Positions 15,003-46,892 of a stretch of DNA of 64,000 nt are shown piece after piece. Made by a program: the position numbers and the translations under genes. Each line of letters starts with the position of its first letter. Within the stretch, counting starts at the first letter, position 1. The stretch is taken from assembly GCF_035594765.1 (NCBI RefSeq), contig NC_085844.1, forward strand, positions 197,052,107 to 197,116,106, in the 5' to 3' direction. The notes below the pieces were generated by a model. It did no database searches. It worked only from the letters and a program-made list of their open reading frames with translations, and had not been told where the DNA came from. The DNA comes from Anolis carolinensis (Eukaryota).

Positions 15003-17109
15003 GGAGAATTCTTGAAGAGGAGAAGAGGTCCCTGAAGACTGGAGATGAGAAAACATTTTCCCCAACTTCAAAAATAGAACAATAGTGCCTAGGCAACCAC
15101 CAAGCAGTCAGCTTGATATTTATACAATCAATGTTCTAGAGCAGACTATTAAACAAACCATCATGAGAGCACTTAGAAAAGAAGGCAGTGATTGCTAATA
15201 TTCAGCATGGGTTTCTCAAAAGAAAATCATGTAAAAAATAAGAGGAGAGAGAAAGAGAGAGATTTTCCTAATACAGGCCCCACAAAGAAAGAAGGGTGGG
15301 TTTGGAGATCTGCATTGGTCAGGGAAAGTACTCTCCCCCCCCCCCAAAAAAAGAACCCCAAAAGATTCTAGAGACATCAAAAGTTGCCTTTCCTTCATCC
15401 TGATGGAATTGTGAGAACTCTACAAAGACAAGCTAACTGAGGCTCTTGGCCAGAGTCAAGGGTGTCAGACCTTATACAGTATTACTCAGTATTTAGCTTA
15501 ACAAAGGGAAGGAATGTCTCAAACATTATACTCACTTAAGAAAGACATCAGAGAATTCTTAAGATGATCACCCTTGCCTCAAAGTGACATCCCTTATCAG
15601 TGGAATTTCCTGTCTATAAGGCATTGTTTGCCAATTTGAAGAGTTAAAACTTTGGTGGGATTGGGGTATAAGCCTTATTCAGATGTGTCTCACTAGTCTC
15701 AACACATCCAGGGTTGGCATTAATGGAATTATGTTCTTTCAGAAATTGATGGGGACAAGATTTTGACCAAGAGAGGCCTCTCTAGCTAGTATTTCTGTTT
15801 CATTAGCCATACAACTGAATGTCATTTCATTTCAGAGCAGCGTCACATACATCTTGGCCGGGGTGTTATGCAAATGTAGCCTTCATTTTGATGATGGAGT
15901 ATGCTCATCAATTTTTCAGATGACACCAAAATGGGCAGATTAGTTAATAGGATAGTATCAGAATTCAATATGATCTCAGCAGATTGGAAAAGTGGACCAA
16001 AAATAACAGGGTGCTGAAGGAAGAGCTTATCTGTGATAGCGGGAGGGAAGCCCCAGGACTGACGAGCGGCGAGGGTTGGAGGATTTTGAGGATTTGAGGA
16101 CAAGGGCGCGGACGGAGGAATAAAGAAATGAAACAGTAAACACTCACCGACCTTGAGCGCCATATTGTTTAGTCTACGCTGATCTTCCTCCAAACAACTA
16201 GAAAGCCGCCCATAGGAAGGGGGAGCCCACGTGGAAGGTGGAGCCGGAACTACTGGCAAAACGGAAGGCGAAGAGAAGTAAGCAGAGGCGAAACCGGACG
16301 TAGGCGAGGGGAAGGAATTCAGAGGCGGACAGAATGGAATTGAAGAAGAAGGGAAACCAGAGAGACCTGCTAGAGAGATAAAATTAGCGGAACTCCCCCT
16401 GCTGGCAGATCCGGGAAGTCTGAGAAGATATACTCAAATGTTAGACTGTGAAATTATTAGTAAAGAAATAACAAGATTAATAAGGAGTGATAAGGTACTG
16501 ATAGAAAAGAAGAGAAGATTGACAAGAGGATGGAGTGTGAGAGGGAATTAAATTTTAAAGCTACAGAGCACCCTGGGGTTTGCAGTCCATAACAAGCACC
16601 TTTTCCAAGCCCTAAATGTGAGCAAGCTGACTTCAGCTTCAACTTGGGGAGCACCCTTAGGAGCTCCTAGGAGTTACTATTGGTGAGGCAACTCACACTC
16701 TCTCCGGTGAAGCAAGCAACTAATGGTTTTGGAAGAATAATCAACTGATGTAAATTCAAGATTTGGGTTATTCTACGGATAGCCATCAAATTTGTATACT
16801 TTATCTAAACCATTAACTCACGGTACTCATAAACTCCAGACCTATCATAAGAGACCCCCCCCCTTTCCCCCCCCCTTTTTTTCCTTTCTTTTTTCTTTTT
16901 TCTTTGTTCTTTTTTTTTCTTTTCTTTCTTCTTGTTGCTGTTTTTTAGTTCTCGAGTGAGGGTTTTTTTTTTCTTTTTTTCTTCTTTTTTCTTTTTTTCC
17001 CTTTTTCTTTTTTCTTTTTCTTTTTTGGATTTTTTAAGCAGTGTTTGGTAACTCAGGACTGGAGACACAAAATAAAATCGGGGAACTGTAATTTTGATAA
17101 TTTACCAGG

Positions 17110-18195
17110 ATGACTACTCCTAAATGGAAATCAGATAAAGACACAAGAGAGATGAAGGAGACTAAATTTAGCACTAGAAGATCATCCCTGCTGGATGATA
17201 ATTGCATGAAAGAAATCTTACGGGAGATGCAGAAAATTTCAGAGAAACAAGATATACTCCAGAAAGAAATGCTATCCATAGCAAAAAAGCAAGACACCCA
17301 ACAAAAAATGCTACAAGAGGAGATGTCAAATTTAAAGAAAGAGTTAAGAGAGGAGCTAGGCTCGATTAAAAAGGAAACCACCAAGAATTCAAATAATATA
17401 AATGAACTGAAAATAGAGAACAGAAAGTTGGAGAAAACAAATTCCAAGTTGCAAAAAAGGATCGAAACCCTGGAGGAAAAAAATAAGAAACTGGAAAAAA
17501 TACAAGAAAAAATAGAACACCAAACAATGGAGTATCAATTAAGATACAGGAATGTACAGGAAGAGACTGATGAAAACATAGGTTGGGTGATTATCCAACT
17601 AACAGCCAAAATACTGCAGTGTACGGAACAGGAGGTATGTGGACAGATCGATCGGGTCTATCGAATTCAGAATAACTACACTAGAAAAAACAAAGCAATC
17701 AAAGACGTAATCGTGCACTTCCTGAAGAAGAGTACCCGGGATGAGATCCTAAAGAAAAATGTCTCTAATCCAGCCATTTACAAAGAGAGGAAAGTAATTA
17801 TCCTTAAAGAGTTCCCGAAAGTCACACTGAATAGGAGGAAAAAATACTTTTTCCTAACAGATGAATTGAAGAGATTACAAATACGATACAGGTGGGACAA
17901 ATATGAAGGCCTAATGGCTACATATAAAGGCGAAAGGATTTGGGTAACAACTGAGGAAGAAGCCAAAGATTTCTATAAAATAATAAAAAGAGACATAAAT
18001 AGAGAATCCTCACCCCAGCAAGGGGGAGAAGAAAAATTTCCCAAGAACTCCAAAAAAAGGAGATTCGCCTCACCTAGAGAGGAAGATTTAACGATTGCTC
18101 AATTGGATCTAGCGGAGGATTTAGAAGCGAATGAGGACCCAGAGGAAGGAACATCGGAGGAAGAAGGAAAGACGGATGATGACGAAGGATCCTAA
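17110..18195 (+). CDS. L1 ORF1p (coiled coil + RRM + CTD, Transposase_22-like), intact 361 aa
   Basis: Heptad-rich N-terminal half, LRYRNVQE / IDRVYRI / DVIVHF RRM motifs, LNRRKKY CTD, acidic C-terminal tail; lies directly upstream of ORF2. Confidence 0.9.
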   Translation: MTTPKWKSDKDTREMKETKFSTRRSSLLDDNCMKEILREMQKISEKQDILQKEMLSIAKKQDTQQKMLQEEMSNLKKELREELGSIKKETTKNSNNINELKIENRKLEKTNSKLQKRIETLEEKNKKLEKIQEKIEHQTMEYQLRYRNVQEETDENIGWVIIQLTAKILQCTEQEVCGQIDRVYRIQNNYTRKNKAIKDVIVHFLKKSTRDEILKKNVSNPAIYKERKVIILKEFPKVTLNRRKKYFFLTDELKRLQIRYRWDKYEGLMATYKGERIWVTTEEEAKDFYKIIKRDINRESSPQQGGEEKFPKNSKKRRFASPREEDLTIAQLDLAEDLEANEDPEEGTSEEEGKTDDDEGS

Positions 18196-21100
18196 AAAGA
18201 TAAGTAAAGTTAGTCAAACATTAAGATGTTTTTCGAACAACGTTAATGGGTTAAATTCACCCAATAAGAGGAAAATATTATTTAATAAACTAAAGAAAGA
18301 TAGATATAGCATAGTAGCCCTGCAGGAGACGCACATCTCGCAAAAATATAGCTATCTGTTAAAAAATGAAAAAATTGGGAAAGAATTTATATCAGCTGAC
18401 AAAGAAAAAAACGGGGAGTAGTACTATATTTAAATCATGAGCTTAACGCGATAGAACAATTTAAAGATACTGAAGGGAGAATGATTGCAGTACTGATTGA
18501 CACCACACTAGGTAAAACCCTCCTATGTAATGTATATATGCCCAATGGCCCCAAGATGAAATTTGTAAAGGCATTAAGAGATAACATTGAGAAGGTAGAA
18601 TGCGATCAAATTATATTATTTGGGGATTTTAATGGGGTTCTGGACAATCAACTAGACAAAACTAGAAGAATTAGAAGGAATAAAATGTCAGGTGTCCTTC
18701 CAAAAAACCTCTTCTTATTAAAAGAAGAATATGATTTGGTGGATGCATGGAGAGAACGTAATCCAGAGGAAATTGACTATACACACTACTCCAGCAGACA
18801 TCAAACCTGGGCAAGGATCGATATGATCTGGGTATCAAAATCGATTCTACCAAAGATCAATAATATACAAATTCTCCCCAGAGAGACATCGGATCACTGC
18901 CCCATGAGTATGCAAATTAACAAAAAATTGACCACAAAATATTGGAGATTAAATGAGAACTTAATCAGACGAGAGGAAGACATAAAGCTGATCAAGGATA
19001 TGATGGCCGAATATTTTAAACTCAATGACAATAAGGAAACTAGCCCACAAAATATTTGGGATGCCTATAAGGCAGTAGCAAGAGGGTTCTTGATTCAGTT
19101 AAACTCATGGAAAAAGAAAAAGAGGGAAGCAGAGGAAAATAGGCTTAATAGAGAAATAGCAATAAAGGAAAAAGAACTGAAAAAAAACCCCGGAAGAAAA
19201 AAGTTAGTAAGATGTTTAGAACTCCTAAACAAACAAAAAAAGAGCTTGCAATTAGAAACAATAGCCAAACAATTAAAATGGGTCAAGCAAAATTCTTTCG
19301 AAAATGCGAACAAGCCAGGTAAATGGCTCGCTAGATTAATAAGGAAGAAGAAACAAAACCAACAAATTACAAAAATCAAGATACATGACAAAATATCAAC
19401 TTTAGAGAATGAGATCAAGGAAGAATTCAAAATTTTCTATGAGAAATTATACAAAGATGACGATATTAATCCGGTAGAGATAATGGATTATTTAGGAAAA
19501 CAAAAATTAGATAAAATTTCGGAGGAACAAAGATTAAAACTTAACAAAGAAATCTCAGAAGATGAAATCCTCAAAGTAGTTAGAAAACTAGAAAGCAATA
19601 AAGCCCCAGGGCCAGATGGCTTTATAGGGGCATTCTATAAGTTAGAACTCAAAGAAGTTATTAGATACTTACAAAAATTAATGAATATGGCACTACAAGG
19701 AAAAACGATTCCAAACTCGTGGAAAGAAGCAAGAATCACAATGATCCCGGAAGAAGGATCAGACACAACTGATGTGCGGAATTTCAGACCCATATCCTTA
19801 CTTAACTCGGATTATAAAATTTTCACCAAAATATTAGCGAATAGATTAAAAGAATTCCTATCAGATTGGATAAGTGAAGAACAAACGGGATTTTTACCAT
19901 CTAGAAGTATCAAAGATAATGTACGCACGATAATTAATGCAATTGAATATTATGACCAAAATATACAAAAAGAAGTAGGGTTCTTAGCATTAGATGCCGA
20001 AAAGGCTTTTGACAATTTAAATTGGAATTTTTTTAAATCAGTTTTTCAGGAAATAGATGTGGGTCTGCAATTCCAGAACGGAATCAACAGCATTTATGAG
20101 AAGCAATGGGCAAGGATTATAATAAATGGGGAAGTAACAGAGATTTTCCAAATTGAAAAAGGTACGAGACAGGGTTGTCCACTGTCCCCCCAAATTTTCA
20201 TTTTGGCGCTAGAAATACTTCTTAGAGCAATTAATAAAGATGAGAAGCTACAAGGGATTAGAATTGATAAACAAAATTATAAATATAGGGCTTTTGCTGA
20301 CGATGTCATATGCATTATCGAAAATCCAAGACAGAAAATTAAAAATTGGCTAGATAAAATTGGCGAATTTGGAAAAGTAGCAGGCCTTAAGATCAACACA
20401 AAAAAAACAATGATTCTTACAAAAAACATGTCAAAGGAAAAACAAAAGGACCTGAAAGATATTTCAGGCTTAGAAACCCCCTCAAAAATTAAATATCTGG
20501 GTATCTGGATGTCAGCCAAAAACAACCAATTATTAAATTTAAACTATACTACAAAATGGTCAGGAATTCATCAGGATTTAAAGAAATGGACTAGTTTAAA
20601 TCTTTCATTAATGGGAAGAATAGCTATGATTAAAATGAATATTCTTCCTAGACTAATGTACTTATTCCAAAACATTCCGATTGTTAGGAAAACCAAAATA
20701 TTTAAAGATTGGCAGAAAGAACTAATGAAATTTATTTGGAAAAATAAAAGACCTAGAATTAAATATTCGACAATGATTTCCCCGAAAAATAAAGGAGGCT
20801 TTGGAGTCCCGGACTTGAGATTATATCATGAGGCCAGTGCGCTTTACTGGATTAAGGACTGGATTAAATTGGAGAAGATAAAATTACTAACATTAGAGGG
20901 GCATGATTTAAGGATGGGGTGGCATGGGTATCTATGGTATGGAAAATCAAAAATCGAAAAACAATTTGGAAATCACTATATTAGATCAGTCCTCTTTAGA
21001 ACTTGGGAAAAATATAAAAGATATTTTCACCTTAAAACTCCGACTTGGTTATCACCATTAGAAGCTAACCATAGAAGATTGCTGGGATGGATAAAATGGC

Positions 21101-21996
21101 CCACCTACAAAGAAATATTGTCGGTGGAAGCAGTGAATATGGGAGAATCTAAACTAAAAGAGTTGGATGAAATTCAAAGAATCAATAAGAATATATCTTG
21201 GTACCAATATATTCAGCTAAAAGAAGCATACAAAAGAGATAAAATTGAAGGATTCGATATGGAGCAAGGGTTTTGGGAAAAACTTTTACAAATAGAAAAG
21301 AAAAATATTTCCATTATTGTACAATAAATAAAATAAAATTGAATTGGACAACCGAAACAGAGGAAATCACTAACTCAATGATTCAGTGGGCCAGAAATGT
21401 AGGAAGATCAATTTTAATACAGGAATGGGAGTCAATTTGGAGGGTTAAAATCAAATACACCTACTCTACAGACATGAAGGAAAACTGGTTAAAAACCATT
21501 CATAGATGGTACCTTACACCAAAGAAATTAGGACAGATGTACAAAAATGCTAATACAAAGTGTTGGAGATGCAAAGAACAAACAGGTTCCTTCATCCATA
21601 TGTGGTGGAGCTGTAGGAAAATTAAAAAATACTGGGAATTGATTTTAGGGGAATGTAATAAGATCTTGAAAACACAATTTGAATTAAAACCCGAGCTTCT
21701 CCTGCTAGGGCTATATGATCAACAAGTCAAAATAGATTATAATACAGACAAACTTTTCACATTTTTCATCACGGCAGCCAGAATGGAAATCCGAAGAAAC
21801 ATTGATGAAAGACTGGTGGATCGATAAAGTGATTGACATAAAAGACATGGACAAATTAACCTTTTTACTGAAGAAGAATGATGGCAGGAAAACGAGAGAG
21901 ACGGACTGGTCCAGATTGGATGACTATTTAAAGAAGCAAAGACATTGTAACAAAATGGATATAGATGAAGATAAAGAAGATAAAGAGAAAGAATAG
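18176..21996 (+). pseudogene. L1 ORF2p (AP endonuclease, reverse transcriptase, CCHC knuckle), broken by frameshifts
   Basis: NVNGLN, LQETH, GDFN, SDH (EN); KAPGPDG, RPISLLN, LDAEKAFD, GTRQGCPLSP, FADD, YLG (RT); CWRC..HMWWSC. Lesions: 1-nt loss in the A run at 18405-18411, indels at ~21310-21340, deletion at ~21785. Confidence 0.93.
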
Positions 21997-30698: not shown

Positions 30699-31229
30699 TA
30701 TATATATATTTGGCTGGAGTTATACTTAAAAAATGTACCTGTTCTGACTTACATACAAATTCACCTTAAGAACAAACTTGGGAACCACTCATGTAGATAC
30801 TATACTCCTCTTGATGTAAAATCCCATTGGCTTTTTTAGCTGCTGCATCACATTACTGGCCCATGTTCAACTTGTGGTCTCCTAAGCCTCCAAGAGTGTT
30901 GTTTTCCTCCTTGGCTTCCTTTCCTCTGGGCTCTCCCCGAGGTGCCGCCATCTCCTCCTTTCCGCCTTAACAGAGAAGCCAGCCACAACCAGGAGTCGGT
31001 TGGAGGCGAAACCACCTTAACAGCCTCGCTGCCTCCCTTTTGCGGAGGACGGGGCTGAGTCTGTGGCAGGGCTTGGCTGCCGCGTTGCCATGACGAGCTT
31101 TTCCTCCAAGCAGGCGGGACTCCGCTTGGGGAAAGGCTGGGTTTGAAAAGAGAGAGAGAAAGAGAGAGAGGCCGGGCCCACGGCGCTGCGGCTTCGCAGA
31201 GTTTGAAGGGACCCCGCGCTTCGCTTCGT

Positions 31230-31540
31230 TGTCATTCCGGGAGGAGCCAGCCAGCCCTTCCTTTCTCCTCCCAAAGTCGGAGCGGAGGAGACTTGCGGTC
31301 CGAAAGCGCGGCGCTTCCTCTCCCCTCCTCCTTGTCCTCCTCCTTCCCGCCCCCTTCCTCCTCCTCTTCCTCCTCCTCCTCTATGGAAATCCAGGGGTTT
31401 TCCCCAGCCTGTGGCAGACTCGGGGACTGGAGGCGGAGGAAAGGCAACGGGAGCGGCAGCAGAAGCGTGTGAAGCGGCTCAAGTCTCGCTTCTGGGCCCG
31501 TGAAGTTGGGCAGTGGCCCCCTTCGTCTCCCAGAGTCCGA
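31230..31540 (+). other. Probable non-coding first exon (start approximate)
   Basis: Ends at consensus donor CGA|GTAAGT (GT at 31541) inside the CpG island; no recognisable protein. Confidence 0.6.
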
Positions 31541-32029
31541 GTAAGTCTCCCCTTTTCTCTTGTTTGTCTTGTCGGTTTCTCCCGCCTCTGAAAGGCGTTT
31601 CCCCGGGAAGGGAAAGCCAGGGCGGGAAGGCTGCGGCAGAGGCTACATTTCTGTCCTGGGCTTGCTTTGGAGGGAGCAGGAGCCAAGGGCGGGGAGGTGG
31701 GGAGCCAGGAAGCAAGGAAGAAAGGAGAGGCCCGCCTCGGGAGTGACAAACAACAACAGCCCTGCTTCGCGCACCGCCTTCGCCCCGGGCTTTCTGCCCC
31801 AGGAAAGTGCGATTTCCCTGGGCTGGGCGCGAAGCGAGGCGTGGAAAAATCAGGGTGTTCCCTGCCTGCGTCCGGCGGCAGAGGGGGAATCTTGGGCGGA
31901 GGGGCGGGCATTGGAAAGGAGGCGGACTCGGGACCCATCTCCACGGCCACATAATGCAGTTTACACCCACATCATGGAGTCCCTTACACTGGTCAGTGCG
32001 TGATACATGTCTACGCTAACTATACAACG

Positions 32030-36081: not shown

Positions 36082-38993
36082 ATCAGGCAGGGATTTTGGA
36101 GATGGTACTTAGCAGTCGCATTAAGGCACATTTTCTCAAAACTAAAAGACAAAAAGACTTTGTATATAGATTTATCTAGGAGGCTGTTCCACTGAACTTT
36201 GTGGATCTTTTTTCTGGAAAAAATGCCCAGCTTGGTTCTGCTGTACATGGGAGCGGAGTGGGGAATCCTTTGGGTGGTGGCTTTGACACTCCACCCAGGT
36301 CTTCCTTATCTCCCTCCCCCTTCCAGCGGCTGACACCAGGAACTCTCCTCTTGACTAGATGTACAAAACCCCTGAAGTCTGACACATTTGATAATCAGGA
36401 CTGCCAAATGGCTGCGTATTTCTCTGCAGCAGATGGAAACAACCCCCTGTTCTTCCCCCTCCCCCATTAGCACCAAGGCAATCCTGTCTGACTTCCTGCC
36501 AGTCTCCTGACAGGTGGGAAAAACACACTGCACAACCTTATTTGGGGGAAACTTCCATCTGTTAGTAAATTGCCTGCTAGAGAAAGGACAGTGTCTACAA
36601 AGTTCCATTCTTGTCTCCTGTTGCTACCCCTTTCCATTTGTTTTATCCTCCGTGTGCATGTGTACGTACCTTCCGTGCTCTGCAGTCATGGCATTCTTTG
36701 CTTCCCCCTTATTTCTTTTATCATAAGTGTGCTGCTACTTTTCATGGTCTGTGTGCTAAGTTTGCTCTATTTTAATGCTGGTAGGAGAGAGGAACGGCAC
36801 ACCTTAATTTTATTCAAAGCTGCCAGTAAATAACATGCCCATGTTCTCACTCTCTCCCTCCCCCTTCCCTCTATGCTGCAAAATGAGTTTATAATGGTCG
36901 CAGTTTAGCCTAGTGTAAATGCAGGCTAGCTGCTAATAGCTGCTTTAGATGGTGCAGCGAGCCTTACTTAAGACCACTCCCTGTGCAGGGAAAATAGAAA
37001 GATGAGAGCAACAGTGTGTGATTGAGACACATGAACATTAATAGATAAGAAGCTTGCTTTATGTAATGTTCCCAAAATATGGGAAGTCAGCTCCTGTTGA
37101 TCTTCATCGTCCTTGCCAGCTTGAAGTCTGACATCTTTTAACTGGTGCTACCAGGGACTGCACCAAGGAAACTCTTGCAAGTGGAATTCTGTGTTTTGGA
37201 GCTACAGCCATTCCCAAGATAGAGAAATAGGTCTGGCAGTTTGGGTCTGGCAGGGTGATGATATGGGATACTTGATGGAAGCAGGAGTTGGAATATTCAA
37301 ATCTAAGCCAGGTAGGAGCAATATAGCAGAAATTTTGAATCAAGGAGACACCAGTGATAGATTTGATAGGGAGAGTCAAGAAAAGACTGAGCAGCTTTGG
37401 AATAGCCAAACTATGTTGAATTGATGCAGTAGAATTAATGCAGTTTGACATCAGTTTAACTACCATAGCCCTGTGCTATGGAATCACGGGAAGTGTAATT
37501 TTGCAAGGTCTTTAGCCTTCTCTGCTGAAAGGTTCTGGTGCCTCACCAAACTACAGGATTTTGTAGTATTGTGCCATGGCATTTATGGTCCTGTCAGATT
37601 GCATCCATTCTACAGTGTTGATGCACCCTAATTTCTTGGTTGCCTGCATCTAGATTCTGATGGGATCTGAGAATAAACTTAGTATAATATAACATTGTGA
37701 TCTGATTGTGGGCTAGCAGGCAATCGCTCATGGTTGAATTATAGTCCTCTTTAGGATAATGTTGGTTATTTGACTTTTCAGTAGATTTTTGACTTGCTTT
37801 AGTAACTTTACTTCCCTGTTTGAACCAACCTGTCAGATTGAATGTGGAAGAAAAACATAACACAGAAATCACCAGGATGAGTCATATCTTTTCAGTCCAC
37901 CTATGATTCTATGAATGCACAGGATGTGAACATCCTGAGTGTATCTGGATTGAATTCCTGAATTTCTGTAGAAGGTCACCTAAATTTCATGATATTATTT
38001 CATTGACTGGAAAAACCGGAAACTCTACAGTGGTATACTTTTTTTGTTTATTTTACCATTTAAAAGAAAAGGGAAGTGTAAAATTAATTGTGCTTCTCCC
38101 CCAAACCACCTCAATGAGACCCTGCCCGTGGAAACCCTCTTCCCCCTGGAGAGTTGACTGATTGAGGTTGCCCATTAAAGGGGATAATCAGCTGTCCTGA
38201 GATAGGAAGTCACCAGCAATACTTGATTGTTTAAAGGAGGAGCCTATCTCCGCTGGTGTAAGAGGAAAGGAGTCATCTAACAGATTATCATCTAGCGTGG
38301 GAAGGGGGCTAGGCACTAATGATGTCGGAGAGCGGGACTGAGAGGTAGCATAGACAAGGCCTAAAATTGGGGGATCTTGTCTACCAAGATTCAGCCTGAT
38401 GTCCAAGGGGTGAATCAATGTGTCTACTAGTACCCTCCTGAGAGTAATGCCCCACTGTTGTAGTTGATAAATGGATGCTACAGATATCTGTAATCATGGT
38501 GAAACATTAAATAAATGAGGCCATCTGAAGTAGGTGGCCACCTAAAAAAATTCCAAGTTGCACTACAAATACACTGGCTTGACCTGAAGATACAATGAGA
38601 AGACTTTCCGAATTGCCAAACAAAATGATTTCTCCAGAAGATATCAAAATTGTGTATAGCTAAGCTGATTGTCAGACCAGAGACGAGAACAAAGAGAACA
38701 CAGCCTAATTCACACTACTTCGTTATATATATTTTTAATTCCCTTGATGGTTTAAATCAGATTTCCATCAAGGTCAAGAAATGAAAGGGTGAGAACAAGA
38801 CCCATACTTGTTAGAACAAGGAGGGAAGTTCCTTCTGGTGAGATATATGTTATACCCTTCTAGGGAAATATGAAGAACTCAGATAGACCATACTTCCATT
38901 TTATGTTATTTTGGACATTTCCAATGCTACATTGTAGAGGGTTGGACTCGCCTACCACAGCACAAAAAATGCAATTTTCCATTCTGTCATTCT

Positions 38994-41618
38994 GTGCTTT
39001 GGTCTTCTGAGGATTTGAGAGTTCTGATTCCTCAGTCACCAGACACACCTCCGAGGTTTGAGTGTGTCTTCCTGAAGGTGGGAGCCCGAGACAGCTTGGG
39101 GATTCTGCTGGTGTACCGTCCACCCCGCGACCCAGCAGTCTCTCTGTCCGAGCTAGCAGAAGTGGTCTCCAATTCGGCCCTGGTCTCCCAACAACTCATA
39201 GTTTTGGGGGACTTTCACATTCATGCCGAGACCACTTTGACAGGTGCAGCTCAGGATTTCATGGTTGCCATGACGACCATGGGGCTGACTCAAGTTATAT
39301 CTGGGCCCACACATCAGGCGGGACACACGTTGGACCTGGTTTTTATTGTGGACGGTGGGACAGTCAGAGTGGAAGAGCAAAATATTCTTCCATTGTCATG
39401 GTCTGACCATCATCTGATCTGTTTAAGTTTCGCCGTGGCTTCTAACCTCCGCAGGGGTGGTGGACCCATTAAGATGGTCCGCCCCAGGAGGCTGATAGAT
39501 CCGGATGGACTTCTGAGGTCTCTTGGGGATCTTCCTGTTCTGGAGACTGGCGATCCTGTCGATGTCCTGGCTGATCGTTATAACAGCGAGTTGGCAAGGG
39601 CACTTGACACGATCGCTCCCGAACGTCCCCTTTCGCTGCGTAGAGTCACGTCGACTCTTTGGTTCACTGAGGAGCTGGCTGTGATGAAGCGTGCGAGGAG
39701 GGGACTAGAGTGCATCTGGAGGAAATCTCAGGATGTGTCTGACCAAGCACGGGCTAAAGCCGCTATTAAGGCTTACTCCGTGGCTCTGCGAGCAGCCAGG
39801 AAAGTTTTCACGACTGCCCACATAGCGTTTGCGGCCAACAGGCAATCGGAGTTGTTCCGAGTTGTTGGGGAGCTCCTGCGGCCTCCTGAGACCCAGGGGC
39901 TTCCTGATGACTTGGCAACTCGGTGCAGCAATTTCGCGCACCATTTTGCAGGCAAAGTTGCTCAGATACATCATGAGTTGGACTCCAGCTTAACTGTAGT
40001 TCCAGCGGAGGTAACCGAGGTACCTGTCTGTTCGATCTTATGGGATTCTTTCCGGCTTGTTCTTCCTGATGACGTGGAGGGGATTCTTGGGTCTGTGAGG
40101 GCGACCACTTGCGCTCTGGATCCTTGCCCATCTTGGCTGGTTAAGCTAGCCAAAGATGGGTTGTTGGGTTGGTTTATGGCTATTATAAATGCCTCCCTGG
40201 TCCAGGGGTCAGTTCCATCCTGCTTTAAGCAGGCGGTGGTAAAACCGCTATTAAAAAAGACCTCCTTAGACCCATCTGTATGTAGCAGCTACAGACCAAT
40301 TTCTAATCTCCCATTTTTGGGCAAGGTTCTGGAGCGGGTGGTTGCCACGCAGCTCCAGGAGTTCCTCGATGACACTGATTTTCTGGACCGCTCACAGTCT
40401 GGTTTCAGGCCTGGGCACAGTACTGAGACGGCTTTGGTCGCCTTGGTGGATGACCTCCGCAGGGAGCTGGACAGGGGGAGTGTGACCCTGCTGGTTCTCC
40501 TGGACATCTCTGCGGCTTTCGATACCATCGACCATGGTATCCTTCTGGGGAGGCTCTCTGGGATGGGGCTCGGTGGCACGGTTCTGCAGTGGCTCCAGTC
40601 CTTCCTGGAGGGCCGTTCCCAGATGGTGAAGCTGGGGGATACCTGCTCGGACCCCTGGCCATTGACCTGTGGGGTCCCGCAAGGGTCTATCCTATCCCCC
40701 ATGCTATTTAACATCTACATGAAACCGTTGGGAGAGGTCATCCGGAGTTTTGGAGGGCGTTGCCATCTCTATGCAGATGACACGCAAATCCACTACTCGT
40801 TTCCATCTGATTCCAAGGAAGCCCCTCGGGTGCTGAACCAGTGCCTGGCCGCTGTGGCAGACTGGATGAGGAGGAACAAGCTGAGGATCAATCCTGACAA
40901 GACAGAGGCTCTCCTGGTCAGTCGCTCGTCTGATCGAGGTATTGGGTGGCAACCTGTGCTGGACGGGGTTGCACTCCCCCTGAAATCACAGGTCCGCAGT
41001 TTGGGGGTCCTCCTGGATTCAGCGTTGACGCTTGAGGCTCAGGTGTCGGCGGTGGCCGGGAGGGCTTTCGCACAACTCAGACTTGTGCGCCAACTGCGAC
41101 CATACCTCGTGAAGTCTGATTTGACCACAGTGGTCCATGCCCTAGTTACCTCTAGACTGGACTACTGTAATGCGCTCTACGTGGGGCTTCCCTTGAAGAC
41201 GGCTCGGAAATTACAACTGGTCCAACGCTCGGCTGCCAGATTAATAACGGTGGCGAGTTACAGGGAGAGATCTACTCCCCTGTTTAAGGAGCTCCACTGG
41301 CTGCCGTTCACTTTCCGATCCCAATTCAAGGTGCAGACCATCATTTATAAAGCCCTAAACGGTTTGGGACCCACCTACCTTCGTGACCGTATCTCCTACC
41401 ATAAACCTGCCCGATCTCTTCGATCATCAGGGGAGGCCCTCCTGTCGCCACTGCCTGTATCCCAGACCCGCCTGGTGGGAACAAGGGAGAGGGCCTTTTC
41501 TGCTGTGGCCCCCCGTTTATGGAACTCACTGCCCATCAAAATTAGGCAAGCCCCCACTCTTTTAGCCTTCAGGAAAGATTTAAAAACCTGGCTTTTCCGA
41601 TGTGCTTTCGGAGAGTAA
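38994..41618 (+). CDS. L2 ORF2 (partial AP endonuclease + reverse transcriptase), open 874 codons
   Basis: YRPP, GDFHIH (GDFN variant), LDLVF, SDH; YRPISNLPFL, QSGFR, LDISAAFDT, GVPQGSILSP, YADD; LWNSLP..FRKDLKTWLF. The N-terminus of the endonuclease is missing and the first codons are probably flanking DNA. Confidence 0.9.
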   Translation: MLWSSEDLRVLIPQSPDTPPRFECVFLKVGARDSLGILLVYRPPRDPAVSLSELAEVVSNSALVSQQLIVLGDFHIHAETTLTGAAQDFMVAMTTMGLTQVISGPTHQAGHTLDLVFIVDGGTVRVEEQNILPLSWSDHHLICLSFAVASNLRRGGGPIKMVRPRRLIDPDGLLRSLGDLPVLETGDPVDVLADRYNSELARALDTIAPERPLSLRRVTSTLWFTEELAVMKRARRGLECIWRKSQDVSDQARAKAAIKAYSVALRAARKVFTTAHIAFAANRQSELFRVVGELLRPPETQGLPDDLATRCSNFAHHFAGKVAQIHHELDSSLTVVPAEVTEVPVCSILWDSFRLVLPDDVEGILGSVRATTCALDPCPSWLVKLAKDGLLGWFMAIINASLVQGSVPSCFKQAVVKPLLKKTSLDPSVCSSYRPISNLPFLGKVLERVVATQLQEFLDDTDFLDRSQSGFRPGHSTETALVALVDDLRRELDRGSVTLLVLLDISAAFDTIDHGILLGRLSGMGLGGTVLQWLQSFLEGRSQMVKLGDTCSDPWPLTCGVPQGSILSPMLFNIYMKPLGEVIRSFGGRCHLYADDTQIHYSFPSDSKEAPRVLNQCLAAVADWMRRNKLRINPDKTEALLVSRSSDRGIGWQPVLDGVALPLKSQVRSLGVLLDSALTLEAQVSAVAGRAFAQLRLVRQLRPYLVKSDLTTVVHALVTSRLDYCNALYVGLPLKTARKLQLVQRSAARLITVASYRERSTPLFKELHWLPFTFRSQFKVQTIIYKALNGLGPTYLRDRISYHKPARSLRSSGEALLSPLPVSQTRLVGTRERAFSAVAPRLWNSLPIKIRQAPTLLAFRKDLKTWLFRCAFGE

Positions 41619-43680: not shown

Positions 43681-44491
43681 TATATATATTCTTTTATTAT
43701 AATTCATCTAATTAGTCAACTTGAGTCCTTGACTTTACATGCATTCTGAAAACTTTTTCCCCTTTGTAACATTCTCACAGACCCTTGGTTTCTCCTGCAA
43801 CATAGATTTCTTTCACCCATATTTTAATTATATCAGCATTATCTATTTTGTTTCTTTGGGTTTCTGATGCTCATATCCTTAACCAAAATTGAAAGATACT
43901 ACTTTTTTGTAATATCTTCAGAATCTCTCTGTTCTTAGCCATTGTGGATGTTTTGTCTAGGTGCAATTGCCACTCTTTAGCATTCTAGATTCTTGGCTGG
44001 TATCTTACTAGGGAGTTTTGATGGTATAACCACTGTGGCATGTAGTGACTCTCCGGCTGAGCCCCACATCTACACTCAGCAAGAGGCAGCCTCTGCAATC
44101 AGTAAGGATCTGGTCTTCTGTGACTTGGGAAATTACAGGCTGAAGTTTCTCCTCATCCCCTCTTGTGAATATTTCCCATTGTGACAGGCAGAAGTAGGTT
44201 CCCTGTCAGTTCCCCTCCTACCAGATATTGCTTGTATGAGCAGTAAGTGGGGATTGGAAGACTTGAATGATCCCTGTATGCCTTCTAAATAAGAAAATAC
44301 TAGTATAGGAATCGTGAATACAACAATGTATTTGGTTAAAGGTTTGTAACTCTCCCATGATTCCAGCCATTGCCATTTGCTACAAAATGTGATCTTAGGT
44401 GAATTACTTGTTGCAAATAATTGGACTGAATGGCCCATTAAACCTTTTGTAGTCTTGATGCGCCCAAAGTAGCATGCAAAAATAGTAGTGG

Positions 44492-45581
44492 TGTTGTAGT
44501 AGAGCCTGTGAGTAATGTTATAAACAGTAGTATGGGTGCCAGAAGGTGGAAAAGGGTTACTTGGGAGCAGGAATCCAATGATGAGCACCAGAGAAAGAGG
44601 ATCCGGGACATACTTACAGCATCTACAGATGAGGAGTCATTTGAGGGATTCTCTGGGGATGATAATGTTGCAGACAGTAGTATGGGTGTCAGAAGGGGGG
44701 AAAGGGTTACTCGGGAGCAGGAATCTGATGATGAACAGCAGAGAAAGAGGATTCGGGACATACTTACAGCACCTACAGATGAAGGGAGGGATTCTCTGGG
44801 GATGAGTGAAGGAGAAGAAGGAGACACCATGGATTGGACTAAGATAAGAGAAGTGCAAGCTATTTGAGAGGCACCAACAACTAGTGATTCCTTTATGGGG
44901 TTGTCTGGGAGCGAAGACTGGCAATCAGGGGATCCAACTGATTCTTGGGGGGATCTAAGTCTTGACAGGAGATGGAGGAATTGGAGGGAGAGCCAAGGGA
45001 ATTCACATGAAGAGCTAGGAGCAGCTGCGGGGGATGGTGATGGGGCGGTGGTCAGTTCATCTTCTGATGGTGATTTGTAGATAAAAGTGGGTTCAGGGAT
45101 GAGGAGTCTTTGCAAGGTGTTGATGTGTGTTCGTGTGCTGGGTGCTGTGTATTGGGAAAGTTTCTTGTAGTCTTGCTGCTGCCTGTTTCATGTTTGGCGT
45201 TGGACTCGGATCTGCAGTTTGGACCTGAACCGGTTCGGCTAAAGATGCTGCTTCTGCGGACACTGGAGCAACGCTGTTTTGGATTCCTCCTGCTTTGACC
45301 TTGGACTTCGACAACGCTTCTCTTCTTGCCACTCCATTTGTTAACCATTTGTGTACTGTGCCTTTTTGTTTTGCCTCAGAGTACTTTGTTTCACTTGCTG
45401 CTCTTCGCATCCAGTTGATTTGGATTACATTTCTGTTTACCTTTTGGATCAGGTCTGGTTTGGGTTTTTGAGTTTTGACCAGTGGAACTGCATTTAAGTA
45501 TCCCTTTTCCTTTTGTTTCAATAAACTCTGTTTTGAAGACACTTTTAAGTTTGGCCCTTTAAGGCGTCTGTGATTCCAACA
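44492..45581 (+). mobile_element. Solo LTR of an LTR retrotransposon (superfamily not resolved: Gypsy/BEL/Copia)
   Basis: Termini TGTTG...CAACA, perfect 5-bp TSD agtgg (44487-44491 / 45582-45586), TATA-like gataaaag at 45080, AATAAA at 45520-45525. Confidence 0.9.
44493..45080 (+). pseudogene. U3-encoded acidic repeat ORF (~195 codons, one internal stop) with FxGF motif
   Basis: ORFs 44508-44867 and 44895-45080 are in the same frame, which is open from LTR base 2; 150-nt (50-codon) tandem duplication; DEESFEGF at 44628-44651. Confidence 0.55.
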
Positions 45582-46892
45582 AGTGGTGGTTACAAACCAA
45601 AAAGCACCATCACAAATCCATAAACAGATAACAAAACAGTAACAGACGTTATGGAATATAGTTGCAAAATATAATTGAAGTATTATTTACACCCAGTGTA
45701 ACTAAAACTTTGTTTTGAATACAAAAATACAGAGGCAAATGAAATACCACAACTTGCAAAAAGAAAAGGTAAACATACATGGAGTGCAACCTCTAGTAAT
45801 TCCACAAATAATCATAAGACTGTCAACATATAGAGAAGACTACCTGAGGAGATAATAAGACAAGTGAAATCAGCTTTTAACATGTAATAGTTTGCAGAAA
45901 CACAAAGTAGAATCTGTTGCTTTTTATAACAAATCACAAAATATTGGCAAGTCAAATTTGCTCCAGTGAGAATACATTTCTTAATGGCTGGTAAATTTGT
46001 AACCACCCTTAATTGTTGGCAACAAATCTGTGACATTGAAAGGAGATGTTTTCTTTCTAGAATTTGTGAGCGGTCATGTCCTGAATCTGATGTACTCTGG
46101 CCTTTTTGTTATTTTCAGACAGAGTTGCAATGAAGCCATCCGTATCATGCCACAGGGCTATTTTCAGTGGCACTAAGTCCAGAATGAGGTTTGCACCAAT
46201 GATGCTAATAGATGGGCCATTGGATCAATTGGGCCACCCTCCCTTCTTGCTGTCTGTTTGATTGTCCTCATTTGCACTTAAGGGTTGGAACTGATTTTTG
46301 ACACAGTGGAATAGCATGACATCAAAGTCTGATTTAGTTAAGTTCTATCAAGCTGTATGTCTATTTCGGAAGTACTCTGAGGAAGAAGTCTGTAACTGCT
46401 TCCTAGGGCCCTTCTGTCTTTTCTTTACTACATCAGCTGTATCAGGGTTGGAGCTTGATAAGGTTGGTTTACCCCTCTAGAAACTGTATCACATCAGGTT
46501 AGTTTTAGTATATTATCCCAGCATACCAAAAATATATAGAGTAGACAGACATATGCTGCATCAGTGAATCTCAATTGCTCTGACATATTTATTCTGTCAG
46601 GAACTGAATGTTACAGTATCTTGCTATTTTAGGAAGATGGAAGAAAGATATTTGTCCATCCTGAAGGTTGCTTTTTCTGGGGGCCATTTCACACTCTACA
46701 GTTACAGTGCTGTACATCCACTAACAGCTATGGTTCATCCTTGTAGGATACCAGCTGTTGTAGGCTACATTTAAGGGAAGCACAATCACAATCCGGCAAA
46801 CTTCTGAGTATTCCCTGCCTAAAAAAAATCATGGGGTCACCATAAGTTGACAGTCAACTTGAAGACACATATATACATATTAAGGTTTACTA

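Follow-up and report, generated by a model that had tools for sequence, protein, structure and literature searches.

The U3 frame of a solo LTR in Anolis carolinensis is the read-through C-terminal tail of a Ty3/Gypsy pol/integrase and not a stand-alone gene. The LTR lies in a 64,000-nucleotide stretch of DNA (the window), and the sequence units repeated in its U3 are well supported as look-alikes of the LEDGF-binding motif of JPO2/CDCA7L type. The tail belongs to a chromodomain-less lizard Gypsy integrase, and we consider it fairly probable that its units serve as TND-interacting motifs (TIMs), by which the integration complex would dock on LEDGF/PSIP1 or HDGFL2, likely steering insertion to H3K36-methylated, transcribed chromatin.

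The window LTR (44492..45581; this and all other window features below are on the + strand) is 1090 bp long with TGTTG...CAACA ends, falls within an Anolis Ty3/Gypsy family as a member of subfamily A1 (two-unit subtype), and is flanked on either side by the 5-bp target-site duplication (TSD) AGTGG (44487..44491 and 45582..45586). From LTR base 2, the U3 frame (44493..45080) runs for 195 codons, is interrupted by a single internal TGA at codon 125 (44865), and stops at TAG 45078-45080, directly next to ATAAAA, a TATA-like box (45081..45086). This box and an AATAAA polyadenylation-like signal (45520..45525) were recognized by sequence and presumably act as such. The preliminary description of this DNA had reported just such a solo LTR with three related units in its U3, and both observations hold. 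Unit 1 (44592..44651) is an intact TIM-like motif, comprising a putative basic/aliphatic helix, an 8-residue acidic linker containing S/T residues, and FEGF (44640-44651). Unit 2 (44742..44810) is the product, with unit 1, of a 150-bp tandem duplication (120 nt at 89%), and its FxGF has been destroyed in the window copy by a pair of small deletions, one following 44785 and the other following about 44801-44808. Unit 3 (44841..44909) is an older, degenerate repeat that contains the TGA and reads FMGL here, leaving unit 1 as the only intact unit of the three. Further downstream lies a W-x-x-W-R motif (44973..44987) that is conserved across A1, A2, B, C, and E. The window LTR differs from four other copies by 5.6-7.3% substitutions; with its orphaned and broken frame, it is a solo LTR in decay that probably yields no protein.

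A DNA search of the genome with the window LTR returned 1066 first-look candidates, and the 40 that were scored are 88-92% identical to it; the family is high-copy in Anolis. The 30 loci that were fetched fall into two subtypes, one-unit (about 975 bp) and two-unit (about 1125 bp). Ten of 30 DNA-ranked copies are open from LTR base 2 through the same TAG, and unit 1 fits the acidic F-x-G-F pattern in 23 of 27, confirming that the frame noted in the window exceeds chance. Among older copies of the LTR elements, several are nested inside other Gypsy elements. No full-length A1 internal region was found in the genome using PPT/PBS patterns, nearby LTR pairs, and the integrase search; the candidates proved to be merely solo LTRs, chance TSD matches, or unrelated neighbors. 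The nearest integrase-linked LTRs to subfamily A1 are about 70% alike, and A1 may have lost all of its full-length copies or be non-autonomous. As regards insertion polymorphism, four sequencing runs show the flanks continuing into the LTR, and no empty-site joint was present among the results; the contigs, too, reveal only that insertions are present. A further LTR family, D, carries the same helix-acidic-FxGF unit (L013:2976-3080, L026:2702-2806), in a form nearest in look to the CDCA7 motif.

The LTR families themselves have probably been catalogued already, and UniRef models contain the tail without comment on it. Six public Anolis gene models include it (P0001, P0124, P0127, P0274, P0275, and P0287), either joined to LINE frames or in proteins of 261 residues that begin at an internal Met; these are probably annotation artefacts. 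The named protein records that match the LTR family and the host genes are all from A. carolinensis, and in separate protein searches tail-matching proteins numbered 1, 2, and, among the best 150 matches, 4, the named ones again from A. carolinensis. As transposons are poorly annotated, such counts do not bound the range of the family outside Anolis. An ESM Atlas search with the tail gave three clusters at 0.76-0.77, within chance, and Pfam returned nothing above cut-off for the tail.

Continuity between integrase and the U3 frame is evident in natural copies. A pattern anchored on the PPT uncovered a diverged LTR with a Gypsy integrase C-terminus upstream, and this integrase piece was then used as a query, with 30 loci taken from the 150 matches listed. 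A PPT and LTR lie downstream of integrase in 29 of the 30, and integrase reads in phase with LTR base 2 in 26 of these 29 related loci, the other three being offset by indels near the G-rich tract. In subfamily A2 (L098, L101, L102, and L103), the GPY/F module runs uninterrupted into the same repeats. In families B and C, young elements of full length, whose LTR pairs are 97.6-100% alike, have intact pol frames of 1207-1219 residues with the tail at the end. The preliminary description had left the U3 frame as either a pol/integrase tail or an accessory peptide, and the in-frame passage across the PPT establishes the former.

The relatives exhibit Ty3/Gypsy characteristics. Five elements (L134, L137, L138, L140, and L141) have paired TG...CA LTRs, a PPT, and a 5-bp TSD, with no env and, past pol, no third long frame before the LTR, and Pfam analysis of L137 and L134 (families B and C) and of A2 pieces shows a PR-RT-RH-IN order of pol together with a Ty3-type gag. 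Gag and pol overlap in different frames, and a Tf2-like SH3/GPY-F module is present. By these same characteristics (frame overlap, domain order, and module), the clade resembles the vertebrate Sushi-ichi/V-clade chromoviruses, a label for which the RT tree contains no named reference; the Anolis elements differ in that they lack a chromodomain and have instead a U3-encoded acidic tail of about 140-200 residues. No Pfam match to the chromodomain (PF00385) was obtained in families A2, B, and C, whereas the domain is present in a neighboring element, L139. In an RT tree of 22 rows (midpoint-rooted, with chromodomain labels assigned by pattern except for L139), the ten rows with the tail fall into a single clade (100/99) that groups with chromodomain elements, these being included among its nearest sampled branches. 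The acidic tail occupies the position of the relatives' chromodomain. The chromodomain-bearing Gypsy pol of L139 (L139:3-3719; G000:C2:237407000-237416000) likewise continues past a similar PPT and into its LTR, where its tail is acidic and different from that of the clade; U3 read-through may therefore predate loss of the chromodomain. In one A2 element, at L131 (G000:C19:473500-482500), the neighboring sequence is a C2H2 zinc-finger array.

Purifying selection on the U3 frame, for which the preliminary description had proposed a test, is detected between lineages but not among the A1 solo copies. For the tail of young family B copies, dN/dS is 0.25-0.37 in five of six pairs and 0.75 in one pair, which lies within one subfamily; between A1 and A2, it is 0.35-0.43. 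Differences between B1 and B2 at codon positions 1/2/3 number 24/12/48 in the tail and 65/63/60 after the stop, and two further comparisons give 28/15/54 and 9/7/29 in the tail against flat post-stop counts of 74/84/70 and 33/37/32. In the DNA-ranked A1 solo copies, however, singleton changes are spread evenly over the codon positions (38/43/38 and 37/44/46), and the shared A1 variants lack a third-position excess (6/5/7 and 17/11/12). A within-A1 dN/dS of 0.50 was set aside because the copies behind it had been picked for openness and protein similarity, and the DNA-ranked count is neutral. Together, the between-lineage constraint and the even changes in solo copies indicate that the tail is selected as protein in active lineages while solo LTRs decay neutrally; the U3 is thus both a promoter region and a selected coding sequence.

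As described in PMC9987994, a TIM requires a helix, which is joined by an acidic linker 8-16 residues long and, optionally, by FxGF; there, FxGF is carried by all known LEDGF and HRP2 partners, a helix and acidic linker without FxGF is the layout of motifs that bind other TNDs, and the host carriers include CDCA7, KMT2A, and IWS1. Judged by sequence pattern, each LTR unit has a helix, acidic linker, and FxGF in TIM order. Unit 1 aligns gap-free with motif M1 of host JPO2/CDCA7L (6EMO) over the predicted short helix with its aliphatic anchors, the acidic S/T-bearing linker, and the FxGF; the linker length of 8 residues is shared with M1 and lies within the TIM range given in PMC9987994. The linker S/T residues precede acidic residues and may be phosphorylated by CK2. 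CDCA7L has tandem motifs, as do the LTRs, where in-frame duplication of the unit has occurred on more than one occasion (150 and 162 nt). The tails of A1, A2, B, and C also finish, at their C-termini or close to them, in a serine/acidic stretch, and such ends are reminiscent of the CK2-phosphorylated, SPOC-binding end of SMRT/NCoR.

FxGF is present in families A1, A2, B, D, and E, and 10 of 11 family representatives retain all three of its defining residues (F, G, and F). Only family C departs from this; it is young and intact (LTRs 97.6% alike) and keeps the helix and acidic stretch without FxGF, so that FxGF is dispensable for transposition and the invariance expected of it across family members does not hold. 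As family C groups with A2 and E in the RT tree (97/92), its lack of FxGF suggests a loss.

The likeness was evaluated with a profile of 24 natural units drawn from 65 pattern matches, the pattern having demanded two phenylalanines and favored FxGF-type matches. Against 177,635 PDB sequences, the best match was the LEDGF IBD-JPO2 M1 complex 6EMO (E 0.0045), followed by the next at E 0.3; a single-sequence PDB search with unit 1 gave 0 matches, JPO2 being found by the profile alone. Over 80 kb around lizard CDCA7 and CDCA7L, the unit profile made three matches, all at those genes' own motifs. In the reverse direction, a profile of the three lizard CDCA7/CDCA7L motifs, run over 24,496 frames (1.05 M residues), ranked LTR units first, with E values down to 1.5e-7; window unit 1 scored E 2e-4, and the best non-LTR match E 3.5. 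Capture from CDCA7/CDCA7L was rejected as a recent event at the level of DNA, where the match within the 80 kb consists of one 14-mer only; with no DNA similarity to these lizard loci, the likeness therefore reflects convergence or old capture. The units differ from host TIMs in being retrotransposon-encoded, and their binding is a matter of prediction.

Modeled as a complex with residues 400-490 of lizard PSIP1, window unit 1 scored 0.48 compared with 0.05 for the best control, with contacts agreeing in at least 87% between runs and a partner pLDDT of at least 62. The mark applied to such scores is reached by 51 of 78 solved pairs and 2 of 108 mismatched pairs in a calibration made without peptides, and passes at 0.60 or under comprise only 5 of the 78 solved pairs and all 4 passing mismatches of 180. 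Because of this calibration, and because a similar complex (6EMO) has already been solved, the score shows likeness only; the pass may reflect memory of 6EMO. Binding of unit 1 to lizard LEDGF is therefore weakly predicted, and the earlier proposal of FxGF host mimicry stands in the alignment of helix, linker length, and FxGF with JPO2/CDCA7L more firmly than in binding. A processed PSIP1 pseudogene with one stop in its integrase-binding domain was also encountered in the genome (L142; G000:C2:143718346-143718648).

Two weak proxies for gene-body insertion provide no support for the targeting of gene bodies that the preliminary description had proposed. At 62 A1 sites, the strand skew of the flanks gives r 0.14 (p 0.26), with the same sign at 30 of the 62, and contigs outside the six largest (C1-C6) contain 1 of 150 and 8 of 150 of the matches listed, compared with 15% of bases. 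The smaller contigs are probably gene-richer microchromosomes; the scarcity there could also be explained by removal after insertion. For the window itself, a first-intron setting had been suggested, and it finds partial support in a GC-rich 5'-exon-like stretch at 31200-31550 that ends in a donor-like GTAAGT and in strand skew that is mostly positive downstream of it; against this, a scan of 70 frames, 67 of them from 78 candidates, identified no host exon or gene, with one of the 70 giving a Pfam match, below cut-off. In any case, one insertion site says nothing about preference. The CpG-rich interval at 39-41.6 kb was ruled out as a promoter, as it is a LINE-type RT frame: a LINE-type element at 38874-41615, with a 914-codon open frame containing RT motifs, accounts for the signal. 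The window also contains a near-intact L1-like element (17101-21824) whose ORF1-like frame has 364 codons and whose ORF2-like frame has 975.

Three other explanations of the tail were weighed. It is very improbable that the U3 frame is a stand-alone, nef/sag-like accessory peptide made from solo LTRs, even though a third of the DNA-ranked solo copies are still open and public gene models place the tail in short or chimeric proteins: no start codon common to the families was found, the frame is continuous with integrase, U3 lies upstream of the LTR's TATA-like box, solo copies mutate evenly by codon position, and the window copy has a stop and two deletions. The HIV nef and MMTV sag genes that had been invoked are the wrong analogues for what is a Gypsy/chromovirus-derived retrotransposon. 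That the conserved features represent a nuclear localization signal with an acidic phosphorylated spacer, or the site of an unrelated partner, with the likeness to FxGF incidental, is unlikely in our estimation. All families, C among them, retain the basic cluster and W-x-x-W-R, which is not true of FxGF, and acidic low-complexity sequence inflates short-motif matches; yet F-x-G-F persists at a fixed spacing from the helix across families with saturated synonymous sites (dS above 1), the whole unit has been duplicated in frame repeatedly, and two independent profile tests pick out the JPO2/CDCA7 motifs.

We regard as somewhat unlikely, but deserving of more weight, a tail that binds TND proteins without choosing targets, through general chromatin holding, integrase stabilization, or competition for LEDGF/HDGFL2, IWS1, or TFIIS with the host proteins that carry such motifs, CDCA7/CDCA7L among them. 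The nearest host matches are indeed CDCA7 and CDCA7L, an insertion-site signal is absent from the two weak proxies, and family C has the layout described for other TNDs in PMC9987994. Opposing it is the position of the tail, at that of the relatives' chromodomain, which is the place of known targeting modules in Neumann et al. 2011 (PMC3059260). The CRM group A chromoviruses treated there are a plant lineage with centromeric targeting and an unrelated motif; the Anolis clade is a vertebrate lineage, and its helix-acidic-FxGF motif points to transcribed chromatin.

TND-mediated tethering that affects target choice, the reading we prefer, appears rather probable. Pol would be made from full-length RNA and the U3-encoded tail would stay on integrase, where its motifs would bind the TND of PSIP1 or HDGFL2, likely boosted by CK2 phosphorylation of the linker and with tandem in-frame units likely adding avidity; the PWWP domain of PSIP1/HDGFL2 would then hold the complex on H3K36-methylated chromatin, with an effect on target choice. 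The full account, extending to gene-body targeting, is plausible at best and on balance doubtful. HIV uses LEDGF to steer integration into active genes, and lentiviral integrase binds LEDGF via a folded catalytic-core dimer and not via a copied linear motif. In Ty5-Sir4, Ty1-AC40, and MLV-BET tethering, targets are chosen through a disordered integrase tail that imitates an interaction motif of the host; to our knowledge, none of these motifs is U3-encoded, and motifs and partners differ from those of the Anolis tail. Lentiviral tethering by LEDGF is placed under viral mimicry in PMC9987994, and use of the same host reader by the Anolis tail would bias integration to active gene bodies.

LEDGF tethering is familiar from lentiviruses, and neither a retroelement with a host-type TIM nor the Anolis tail was found described in the titles and opening abstracts returned by full-text literature searches. 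We offer tentatively, as something short of probable, the broader notion that a vertebrate Gypsy lineage swapped a heterochromatin-reading chromodomain for an LTR-encoded CDCA7L/JPO2 mimic and so gained access to LEDGF/HDGFL2 and active gene bodies, by a route separate from that of lentiviruses and via a different interface, while duplication or loss of FxGF let sister families tune their target. A natural experiment is available in one genome, which contains families whose FxGF units number one, two, or three, a family that has none, and relatives with a chromodomain, and in which the link between integrase tail and target choice is testable from insertion maps alone. If binding is confirmed, the tail would represent a second, independent route to LEDGF, taken by a clade still young within the anole genome.
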